A stretch of DNA of 55,589 nucleotides, filler included, from Asterionella formosa (Eukaryota): NCBI GenBank assembly GCA_002256025.1. It is 4 parts of 4 records of this genome, joined end to end, with 100 filler letters (N's around TTAATTAATTAA, not from the genome) between each part and the next. Parts side by side here need not be neighbours in the genome. Positions count along the whole stretch, not along the records: positions 27,862 to 41,678 come from NKIB01006397.1; 3 more parts are not named here. One strand, given 5' to 3'. Position 1 is the stretch's first letter. Each line of letters begins with the position of its first letter. Below the pieces are notes generated by a model that had not been told where the DNA came from, did no database searches, and saw only the letters and a list, made by a program, of their open reading frames with translations. Shown one piece after another: positions 30,085 through 32,198 of this stretch. Position numbers and translations under genes: made by a program.

Positions 30085-30836
30085 GAGAATTCAGGTATGG
30101 CACCAGTTGGAAGGAGAGGTACACATTGTCTGCAAAGACAGGGGTATATCACAGGTAATGGATTTTCCTCATGTGTATTTGCATTTTGTATTTTGATTCG
30201 ACGTGGTGCCATTTTCCTCCTCTGTGCGGGAGGAGAGCGATCATGGCGTTTACTCTATGCTGTATACAGGTATGTTAACTTAATTAATTAGACCACGGTG
30301 GACTACTCCTTTGGTCTACTCCGTGTTTGAATCCCGATCAGCCGAACTCAGCAAGAATACCGGTGTGTATTTATTCACGCTCACGTATGATACATTAAAG
30401 CAAGTGGGATCCCGGTACTTCCATGAATGCACAGGTAACTACCGGGTACCCTGGTACCTGGTACTGTAATTGGAAATACCACGTATATTTAGTTGTTCCG
30501 GAACATAACGGCAACTGGCATGTGCGGTACCTGCATAGGTAATCCTCTACGACACAACCATGAAACAGTGTCGGCTTGACTTGCACCAAACAAACAAGCA
30601 ACCCATGTATGATACATATACCGGCACGTGTGTAAGTGTGACATCATCTGGATTGTTCGAGTCTATTGACTCAAACAGTTACCTCTTTACCACTTTCTAA
30701 AATATACGACGGCTCAATTCGATCACCCACCAACAAACAGAAAAAAGTGCTCACTCACTGGAGCTTTTGTTTTGCCGAGAAGGTTGAGCCATCGTTATAC
30801 TTTCCTTTTATCTTTCTCTATTTTAAATTTCGCACC

Positions 30837-31572
30837 ATGGTTTCCAAGAAGCAAGTAAGTAACAACCGGAGGAGGCAACAATGCACCACTGTGCCTGCCT
30901 GAGATGGTTGTTTTTCGCTGTTGTGTTGGCGGTGGCCATAGCTCTATGTACGCACATGGCATCCCGTTAGGAGTCACGAAAATCGATGGAATACATCGCG
31001 TTCTACGGGACCACTGTATGTACTCCCACAATACGCCCGACTGTGGTGGAGTAGAATCGATTTGGCTTCTATTCGAGGATGTGGCCCTGGCCCATGATGC
31101 TACTGCTGCTGCAATACCACAACAACAAACGATAACATCCATCTCTACAGAATGAGGTGGTCATGAGTTTCCATCACTGCTACCTGTTTCAGGCCACGGA
31201 CCATATACATACAGTAACGACCATGGTGCTAACTCTTTTAATCCATTACACCAAGTACAGAAGAAGAGTCAAGACTCGATGAACTCCCGCCTTCAGCTTG
31301 TCATGAAGTCTGGAAAGGCCATTTTGGGATACAAGGCCACTGTCAAGGCGCTTCGAAAGTCCAAGGCCAAGATGATTCTCATTGCTTCCAACTGCCCTCA
31401 TTTGCGCAAATCGGAAATTGAGTATTATGCTATGTTGGCCAAATGTACTGTTCATCATTATGCTGGTGACAATGCTGCTCTCGGTACTGCCTGCGGTAAA
31501 TTCTTCAACACCTCCGTCATGTCCATCATTGATGCAGGTGACTCTGATATTTTGACCAATACTAAGGAATAA
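30837..31572 (+). CDS. RPL30: 60S ribosomal protein L30 (eL30); join(30837..30854,31261..31572)
   Basis: [54 protein letters not shown]. 406-nt GTAAGT..TACAG intron with a GCTAAC branch. Confidence 0.97.
30861..30912 (+). promoter_or_regulatory. L30-type kink-turn RNA element at intron position +7
   Basis: AACAACC-G-GA-GG-AGGCA / UGCCU-G-CC-UGA-GA-U-GGUUGUU: 7-bp stem, G.U pair, tandem G.A/A.G pairs, 3-nt bulge, canonical stem. Confidence 0.75.
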
Positions 31573-32198
31573 ACAGTAAATAAGTAAATCGTTCAAAATA
31601 ACTAGCTATTTATTGTGTTTTTTAGGTTTGTTGCACCTACAGTATCATCATTTACAATGAATTCGCAATGTTCAGGCAAACCAGTTACTACATTCCAAAA
31701 CATCCTTGTTCTCAACAACCAAGAAATGGAGTTGAAAGCTCAGCCGCACTCCTTGTGTCAAAGTGGCACCTTTCAGTATGAATGAAGGTCCAATGCGGTT
31801 TACAAATTTTAGTCACAGCATCCAAATCCTATTTGCACACAACAACAGCTCCATGTGCTACAATCGAAATTTTCAATAGCCCTAGATTTGCCTGACAAAT
31901 TCAACTGCCGTTTACTCAAGGGAATTGGATTGCTGATATCTATAGCCCCTCGATTAGCTTGCCTTTCACTTAATAAGGAAATTGGACTCCCAAAATCAGA
32001 AGAGAGTGGAATGAACCAAGATTTGAATGCAGGAAATGATGGCTTTCTGAGAAGTGTCAATGGTATATACATCCCTGCTACCTTCCAGCGTGTTTCAGAC
32101 TCATATTATTTTCGTTGATGAAACAAGTAACGGTTCATCTATAAAAGTATGTGGCTTGTGGTTGGAAGGGACGCAAGGCAGTAGAGGAAAGCCACATG

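Follow-up and report, generated by a model that had tools for sequence, protein, structure and literature searches.

A conserved kink-turn beside the 5' splice site of diatom RPL30, a candidate site for splicing feedback by eL30

Can a ribosomal protein set how its own transcript is spliced in a diatom? The question is raised by the RPL30 gene of Asterionella formosa, which lies in a 55,589-nt stretch of assembled DNA (the window; coordinates count along this whole stretch). The first intron of the gene carries, directly downstream of its 5' splice site, a hairpin with the sequence anatomy of a kink-turn (K-turn). The same hairpin is found at the same place in most of the complete diatom-like RPL30 introns recovered, with an invariant core and covarying stems, and polyadenylated transcripts that retain the intron exist. 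The hairpin is probably bound by free eL30, which the same gene encodes and which would thereby set the splicing of intron 1.

The host gene encodes eL30 in two exons, the first of which ends at 30854, six codons after the ATG at 30837-39. The product matches eL30 chains of solved ribosomes in PDB (best E 1.9e-42) and yeast L30 (1ck2 and 1t0k, E ~7e-36), and PF01248 is present on all the relatives listed for it. Its closest named proteins are diatom L30 proteins, namely an MMETSP transcript 'Gra..' (86%), Nitzschia sp. Nitz4 (83%) and Phaeodactylum tricornutum (83%), and Seminavis, Ditylum and Mayamaea are also among the named relatives. The host is therefore a diatom, as expected from the first-pass annotation, which had placed the gene in a stramenopile. 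Relatives were collected by scanning metagenome contigs with the exon-2 protein; this gave 586 pattern matches, 491 of which encode a relative, and the best 80 of the 491 were analysed. The phase-0 intron occupies the same codon position in all the diatom-like genomic loci (L001-L017, L020, L023, L024).

The hairpin consists of a noncanonical (NC) stem next to the splice site, an asymmetric internal loop and a canonical stem (C-stem) that ends in an apical loop (Table 1). The 3n.3b pair is G30868.U30905, and the GA at 30869-70 lies opposite the GA at 30903-04. On the other side of the bulge C30899 pairs with G30871 and C30898 with G30872 (alignment pairs 26-88 and 27-87), both invariant in 12 of 12 distinct sequences, as part of the C-stem. 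The NC stem is made of the G.U pair and seven covarying base pairs. The layout that had been read after the GTAAGT donor, with a 7-bp stem, a G.U pair, tandem G.A/A.G pairs, a 3-nt bulge and a canonical stem, is thus what the sequence holds. At sequence level it is that of a standard (simple) K-turn: a 3-nt bulge is followed by GA facing a 5'-GA-3', a Watson-Crick C-stem runs up to the bulge (-1b:-1n = C:G), and the NC stem continues beyond the G.A pairs. Under published K-turn rules, G at 3n and C:G at -1b:-1n favour folding (PMC6298567). The window K-turn has both, features that would favour (ion-induced) folding.

Table 1. Features of the RPL30 locus, in coordinates of the window
Feature	Positions	Strand	Basis or remark
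RPL30, two-exon eL30 gene	30837-31572	+	sequence and RNA contigs
RPL30 coding exon 1 (ATG GTT TCC AAG AAG CAA = MVSKKQ), 18 nt	30837-30854	+	spliced RNA contigs join 30854 to 31261
Intron 1, 406 nt, GTAAGT...ACAG, phase 0	30855-31260	+	RNA joint (skips 406, GT..AG)
5' splice site GTAAGT	30855-30860	+	weakly drawn into helix in the window
RPL30 exon 2, 103 codons and TAA, eL30 / Ribosomal_L7Ae fold	31261-31572	+	protein matches
K-turn hairpin, wholly intronic, starting +7 from donor	30861-30912	+	sequence; comparison with relatives
NC stem, 5' strand AACAACC (30861-67) and G 30868	30861-30868	+	pairs with 30905-30912; covarying pairs
Non-bulged core: G2n A1n (30869-70), then GG at -1n, -2n (30871-72)	30869-30872	+	GGAGG invariant in 12/12
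Distal C-stem AGGCA (30873-77) / UGCCU (30892-96), 14-nt apical loop (30878-91), bulged G30897	30873-30897	+	sequence
Bulged core: CC at -2b, -1b (30898-99), bulge UGA (30900-02), G1b A2b (30903-04)	30898-30904	+	CC and GAGA invariant in 12/12
NC stem, 3' strand U 30905 and GGUUGUU (30906-12)	30905-30912	+	sequence, fold, covariation
5'UTR K-turn candidate	30749-30790	+	descriptor scans; pattern match

The hairpin lies where an eL30 autoregulatory site would be looked for, in the 5' part of the RPL30 transcript itself. It does not have the layout of the yeast and fungal sites, which span exon 1 or the 5' untranslated region (5'UTR) and the intron start, or lie in the 5'UTR; the stretch 30861-30912 is wholly intronic. 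The pattern ACCGGAG..GAGATGGT matches once in the 55.6-kb window, with 0.01 matches expected. The minimum-energy fold of the hairpin is in a slipped register, in which AGGCA pairs with a second UGCCU, one UGCC(U) repeat off, leaving a 4x4 loop. Nearest-neighbour energies do not model K-turns, and the K-turn register therefore rests on comparison with the relatives. A search of 30500-31700 against Rfam 15 returned no matching family at E <= 10 except a meaningless 11-bit match to SCARNA7 outside the intron; three loci searched in the same way (L001, L011 and L036) gave no match.

Comparison with the relatives separates an invariant core from helices that drift. The alignment comprises 12 distinct sequences, with 21 pairs and thus 252 cells. 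The core GGAGG / CC-NGA-GA-(U/A)-GG is invariant, that is, GGAGG, CC, GAGA and GG are present in 12 of 12 sequences. The first bulge position, L1, is C in 10 of the 12, A in one (L006) and U in the window. Eleven sequences have U at 3b; L008 has A there, and its change of 4n from C to U keeps a wobble pair. In this alignment, which was fitted to the model, standard pairs occupy 84.1% of the cells compared with 26-49% when the partners are slid by 1-3 columns. Changes on both sides occur in nine of the 21 pairs (shuffled mean 5.1; 6 of 500 shuffles reach nine), and the covariation score is 0.252 versus 0.151, a value reached by none of 500 shuffles. In the window an A-U pair in the distal C-stem takes the place of the G-C or G-U of the relatives (pair 28-85). 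The length of the apical part ranges between 10 and about 55 nt. The spacing to the donor is nearly fixed, the G at 3n being at +17 or +18 in 11 relatives and at +14 in the window. Along the introns, which range from 201 to 588 nt, the two K-turn strands have identities to the window of 0.71 and 0.75 and the acceptor one of 0.72, as against 0.06-0.32 elsewhere.

The window and 24 relatives (L001-L024) were classified for the presence of the hairpin. It lies directly 3' of the donor in 15 of these 25 loci (the window, L001-L004, L006-L008, L011-L014, L016, L017 and L024). Three loci have a complete intron and no such hairpin (L005, L015, L020), three are cut off before its place (L009, L010, L023), and three have no intron there (L018, L021, L022), the ATG running straight on into exon 2. 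Since L018 is genomic, with another gene upstream, intron 1 seems truly to have been lost there. The remaining locus, L019, is not diatom-like, its nearest named relative being a brown alga (73%); its intron is present, and no K-turn was recognised in it, with the assignment of exon 1 uncertain. Thus the element is present in 15 of 18 complete diatom-like introns, or 11 of 14 after near-identical contigs are collapsed. Conservation in related RPL30 introns had been set beforehand as a test of the proposal, and the outcome was the same place, invariant GA/GA and covarying stems. Because the same element stands at the same place in so many complete introns, the match is not a chance one.

A covariance model gave the same result. 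Built from 11 sequences and searched against both strands of 270,397 bases, it recovers the window and 14 loci at E <= 1e-9, including L008 (E 1e-9), which was not used in the model. L015 gave one weak match (E 4.8), and no other match was found on either strand of the bases searched. The nearest named relatives of the carriers, which are rough labels, include Nitzschia (L002, 89%), Cylindrotheca (L003/L004, 89%), Seminavis (L011/L012, 92%), Mayamaea (L014, 83%), Helicotheca/Ditylum (L006, 89%) and Coscinodiscus (L024, 82%). The exon-2 product of L001 matches 'predicted protein [Phaeodactylum tricornutum CCAP 1055/1]' with 100% identity over 104 residues. From this range the element would seem to extend over the pennate and probably also the centric diatoms.

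The splicing of intron 1 was followed in contigs assembled from four RNA runs (X1, X5, X7, X8); the runs that match the stretch are labelled as lake or freshwater samples. The joint 30854>31261, which skips 406 nt with GT..AG borders, is present in contigs of three of the four (X1, X7, X8). In X1, a poly(A) metatranscriptome, a 57-nt spliced-junction contig has a depth of 10,092.6 and a 466-nt contig that holds the whole intron (30825-31290) a depth of 2,278.9, depths here being those of contigs and not levels. In X7 a spliced contig (30734-31602) has a depth of 53.2 and an intron piece one of 3.4, and X8, which was random-primed, gave a spliced contig (depth 6.7) and a piece joining intron and exon 2 (depth 4.55). 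That piece lacks 12 intron nucleotides at 31175, a difference that probably reflects variation between strains where the intron is not conserved. The sole contig of X5, a poly(A) transcriptome from a separate study, is 755 nt long (30825-31579, depth 302.6) and joins the intron to the complete exon 2; that one contig showed no spliced joint. Intron-retaining poly(A) transcripts therefore exist, and in some samples they are not rare. Stretches without cover by RNA contigs (upstream of 30734, and the flanks in X5) were not used as evidence.

The 3' end of the intron has features of its own. In 12 of 17 diatom-like loci YGAGYRYAG ends intron 1 directly before AAGAAG, and in the window 31252-31260 reads CAAGTACAG; the distance to the acceptor is too short for a usual branch point. 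The acceptor at 31259-31266 is of the NAGNAG type (CAG|AAG|AAG). One odd X1 contig (record 1) runs from exon 1 into 31264-31287 on the opposite strand and is absent from the list of joints; it may be a chimera or a hint that the next AG is used.

A second K-turn candidate is present in the 5'UTR. It precedes the RPL30 ATG by 53 nt and belongs to the mRNA, since the spliced X7 contig starts at 30734. Its non-bulged strand reads CUCACU-G-GA-GC with the 3n G at 30760, a 9-nt loop follows at 30765-73, and the bulged strand reads GC-CGA-GA-A-GGU-(U)-GAG with the bulge at 30776-78 and GA at 30779-80. The pattern GGAGC..GCNNAGAAGGT matches once in the window, where 0.00 matches are expected, and among the 80 loci only in L003, L004 and L005, always on the + strand and at most 110 nt upstream of the RPL30 ATG. 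The copy in L005 is 66 nt and those in L003/L004, with UAA in the bulge, 30 nt upstream. The pattern is circular by construction, being derived from these sites, but the shared position is not circular. The candidate has the 5'UTR location of the fungal motif, and the folds of these sites are no better than those of shuffled sequence (z = -0.13 in the window). L005, a close diatom relative whose protein has 82% amino-acid identity, keeps the 5'UTR copy (1946-1996) and has no K-turn in its intron (2075-2500), so the intronic and 5'UTR copies can be lost independently.

How specific such sites are depends on the descriptor. A strict L30-type descriptor (GGAG and C-NGA-GA-(U/A), with pairing at -2, 4 and 5 and, over the following 10 nt, no fewer than 6 pairs with one bulge allowed) gave 26 matches on the gene strand versus 2 on the opposite strand in the window and the 80 loci, and all but two of the distinct gene-strand matches are at RPL30 5' ends. 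A generic K-turn descriptor (any NGA bulge, both topologies) gave 118 on the + strand versus 125 on the - strand and is uninformative. K-turn-like sites in the 5'UTRs of L015 and L020, seen by eye and of reversed topology, and of L024 were therefore rejected as unsupported. Further candidates were also set aside: a match in the L029 5'UTR (999-1023) has only three NC pairs and no support from its fold, GGAGC..GCAGAGAAGG in the L018 5'UTR has no NC stem, and a match at 196-252 of L018 is due to chance, in a GC-rich coding region of the upstream gene that reads by eye as DnaJ-like. A yeast-like arrangement in which the non-bulged strand of the 5'UTR copy would pair with the bulged strand in the intron was rejected: worked out by hand, it gives only three NC pairs and a C.C mismatch at -2.

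The relation of the hairpin to the donor differs among species. In most relatives the lower helix extends into the 5' splice site, with +2/+3 to +6 of GUACGU or GUAUGU pairing with a downstream ACGU(A), and the pairing probability of donor positions +3 to +6 is at least 0.6 in 8 of 12 K-turn-bearing sequences. The donor of the window is partly paired only at +1/+2 (0.89/0.84) and +4/+5 (0.6/0.54). The earlier claim that the element, inside the intron from +7, stands apart from the donor holds for the window only; in most relatives the helix reaches into the splice site. Among non-carriers, the donor of L015 is fully paired by other sequence and that of L005 is mostly open; donor pairing alone is not discriminating between carriers and non-carriers. 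The claim about the bulged UGA also stands in part. It is the first in-frame stop if the intron is retained, at codon 22 in the window, but it is peculiar to this species and not conserved, L1 being mostly C. On retention nine relatives (L003 and L004 counted separately) reach a TGA at codon 10, L024 stops at codon 12 and L007 at codon 22. In the nine the stop lies in the lower stem and the bulge is CGA or AGA, on which ground the bulge UGA was rejected as a designed stop.

A mechanism can be modelled on the precedents of yeast RPL30 and the archaeal L7Ae leader. eL30 beyond that used in ribosome assembly would bind the K-turn 14-18 nt downstream of the donor. Binding would lock the kinked stem-loop, the lower helix of which, in most diatoms, would include donor positions +2 to +6. 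We infer that early steps of spliceosome assembly would then be hindered and intron 1 retained; the retained intron would bring an in-frame stop after 10-22 codons, and no eL30 would be made. The 5'UTR candidate could in addition let eL30 damp the translation of spliced mRNA. The choice of eL30 as the likely ligand follows its behaviour in yeast, where it is described as binding K-turns and regulating both its own pre-mRNA and its mRNA (PMC3706390, PMC11585973, PMC8047918). The aromatic residue described as the chief contact with RNA is F85 in yeast and Y89 in rat (PMC3706390), and in the window eL30 (P0001) it appears to be the F of GKFF, matched by eye.

Several observations weigh against this mechanism or limit its reach. 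Thermodynamic support for the hairpin is modest: the 61-nt hairpin folds at -20 kcal/mol (z = -2.08), with 6 of 200 shuffles equally stable, and the 161-nt context has z = 0.21. The covariation figures lean toward structure, the alignment being fitted to the model and containing several close kin. In the folding model the donor of the window is barely sequestered. The three complete diatom-like introns without the hairpin indicate that the intronic element is dispensable or replaceable. As to the RNA, retention is not quantifiable from contigs, whose depths are not levels, and carry-over of DNA into the libraries could account for intron contigs. Upstream of the donor the intron contigs of X1 and X5 extend by only 30 letters, one fewer than the rule for bridging asks; the acceptor is bridged. 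The core is presumably the same as that of the yeast L30 site, apart from the first bulge base. Finally, eL30 is not the only possible ligand, since other proteins of the L7Ae family bind K-turns (PMC6298567).

The K-turn might thus be bound by another member of the family, such as Snu13/15.5K or an Nhp2-like protein, as an intron-derived K-turn/K-loop or small nucleolar RNA (snoRNA)-like particle that modulates excision of the host intron. Binding of K-turns by L7Ae-family proteins is general (PMC6298567), and a 2026 preprint describes thousands of mammalian K-loop RNAs that lie in introns, are bound by 15.5K and repress the splicing of their host introns (10.64898/2026.08.03.742641). The bulged strand of the window has a CUGA, which resembles a D box. 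This CUGA is however confined to the window, the relatives having CCGA or CAGA there, and no conserved C box (RUGAUGA) accompanies it, as a box C/D K-turn would require. No snoRNA family matched inside the intron in Rfam. In everything searched, the intronic element was found only at RPL30 5' ends, which fits a gene-specific ligand. We regard binding by another family member as rather unlikely.

A structure that acts without any protein is also rather improbable, and if anything a little more so. Such a hairpin would present or mask the donor of an unusually short exon 1, with 18 nt of coding sequence, and tune the efficiency of constitutive splicing without feedback. The pairing of the lower helix with donor nucleotides in most relatives would suit it, and introns of yeast ribosomal-protein genes are known to contain structured 'zipper' or enhancer stems (PMC12311795). 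But a purely structural stem needs no invariant asymmetric purine loop (GGAGG / CC-NGA-GA) while the flanking helices drift and covary. Moreover, the same loop recurs away from donors, in the 5'UTRs of the window, L003/L004, L005 and L036.

It is very unlikely that the conservation reflects a DNA-level element, a transcription-factor site or intronic promoter element, instead of RNA structure. First introns of ribosomal-protein genes can hold transcriptional motifs (PMC8047918), but here compensatory changes keep the pairing of segments 20-70 nt apart, the matches of the strict descriptor favour the gene strand, and positions at which A.C would be the DNA counterpart accept G.U pairs. Chance resemblance to the yeast L30 site can be dismissed almost entirely: loose K-turn-like motifs are common, as the generic descriptor showed, but the specific pattern is expected only about once in a hundred such windows and the element is conserved in place.

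Feedback by eL30 through the intronic K-turn, the reading that we prefer, has its closest precedent in Saccharomyces cerevisiae RPL30 (formerly L32). Yeast L30 binds a structure made of exon 1 and the intron start, permits binding of U1 and blocks U2 (PMC11585973, PMC8047918), and it also represses translation of its own spliced mRNA (PMC3706390). As far as these sources describe it, the likeness lies in the same protein family and in a purine-rich internal loop or K-turn that stands, where the gene begins, beside the 5' splice site. In yeast the result is an unspliced RNA unable to make protein, of which the proposed diatom transcript would be the counterpart, and to the second control, on mature yeast mRNA, would correspond the 5'UTR K-turn candidate. 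The structures differ in that the yeast one joins exon 1 to the intron start whereas the window K-turn is wholly intronic from +7 and the lower helix of the relatives reaches donor positions +2 to +6. Exon 1 of the window gene encodes only six residues, and the C-stem has a conserved bulged G and a variable apical extension.

Other known systems share parts of this arrangement. The fungal 'rpl30 motif', described from 47 examples in 26 species, is a conserved hairpin with a purine-rich internal loop that accompanies L30 genes and is a proposed eL30 autoregulatory site (PMC5640933). By its published description, on which our comparison is based, it lies mostly in the 5'UTR and is confined to fungi, whereas the diatom element is intronic. 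Neither was matched in Rfam 15, as far as the windows and loci searched show. In the archaeal L7Ae leader the protein binds a K-turn in its own mRNA and the stabilised stem-loop hides a functional site (PMC6298567). Site hiding is what is proposed for the diatom donor; the site hidden in archaea is the ribosome-binding site. The archaeal leader K-turns are predicted to be unfolded without protein, whereas the diatom G at 3n and C:G at -1b:-1n would favour ion-induced folding. The mammalian 15.5K K-loop RNAs are alike in being intron-encoded K-type motifs that repress excision of the host intron, but they have terminal C/D motifs and occur genome-wide, whereas the diatom element has no conserved C/D boxes and is specific to RPL30 (10.64898/2026.08.03.742641). 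The reviews consulted cite yeast alone for splicing autoregulation by L30 (PMC11585973, PMC8047918), and no description of a diatom RPL30 K-turn was found in the literature searched, which mostly did not cover subscription journals. What is new here is a diatom intronic K-turn of variant architecture, possibly duplicated; the mechanism itself is known from yeast.

Similar cores occur at RPL30 5' ends outside the diatoms. L036 (2369-2395), like L037 and L039, has in its 5'UTR a compact hairpin that precedes the ATG by about 25 nt and has a C-stem of two base pairs (CAAAG-G-GA-GC, a tetraloop, GC-AGA-GA-U-CUUUG). The nearest named relatives of these three are chytrid fungi (72-79%), and unnamed marine transcripts are at 76-80%, so that their placement is uncertain; the hairpin, if fungal, probably belongs to the published rpl30 motif. 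L061, L066 and L070 represent one GC-rich lineage, with best matches to an unnamed transcript (83%) and Tetraselmis (77%). In L061 (2090-2285), and also in L066 and L070, 158 nt separate the two K-turn strands. The non-bulged one stops directly upstream of CAG|GTGCGC, its bulged partner starts directly downstream of CCCACAG|, and the outer arms can form eight pairs with one bulged A. If the 149-nt piece between (CAG|GTGCGC...CACAG|GC) is a 5'UTR intron, as its consensus borders would indicate, the K-turn would bracket both of its splice sites.

The GGAG / C-NGA-GA-(U/A) core is thus present at the RPL30 5' end in diatoms (intronic and 5'UTR), in L036 (5'UTR) and in L061 (on strands around a putative intron). 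A phase-0 intron directly before the conserved KK is also found in L036, L047 (green-plant-like), L056 (87% to Acanthamoeba) and L061. No K-turn was seen in L047 and L056, and its absence at many other loci, which are complementary DNA-like or without upstream sequence, is uninformative. A tentative and so far doubtful extension is that K-turn feedback by eL30 is an ancestral eukaryotic module, not a yeast or fungal speciality, that slid around an ancient first intron over more than 1 billion years. If so, the diatom intronic and 5'UTR copies would allow dual control of splicing and translation.

The L30 feedback loop seems to be much more widespread than is known. Since the same core is found beside the first RPL30 donor in a range of diatoms, the circuit is either of great age or the product of repeated evolution. 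The natural variants (U or A at 3b; C, A or U at L1; the conserved bulged G; variable apical inserts) form a ready mutational series for the K-turn specificity of eL30. The circuit can be tested in a transformable model, as L001 encodes the Phaeodactylum tricornutum protein, and it offers diatom research a first concrete case for testing ribosomal-protein feedback by way of regulated intron retention.

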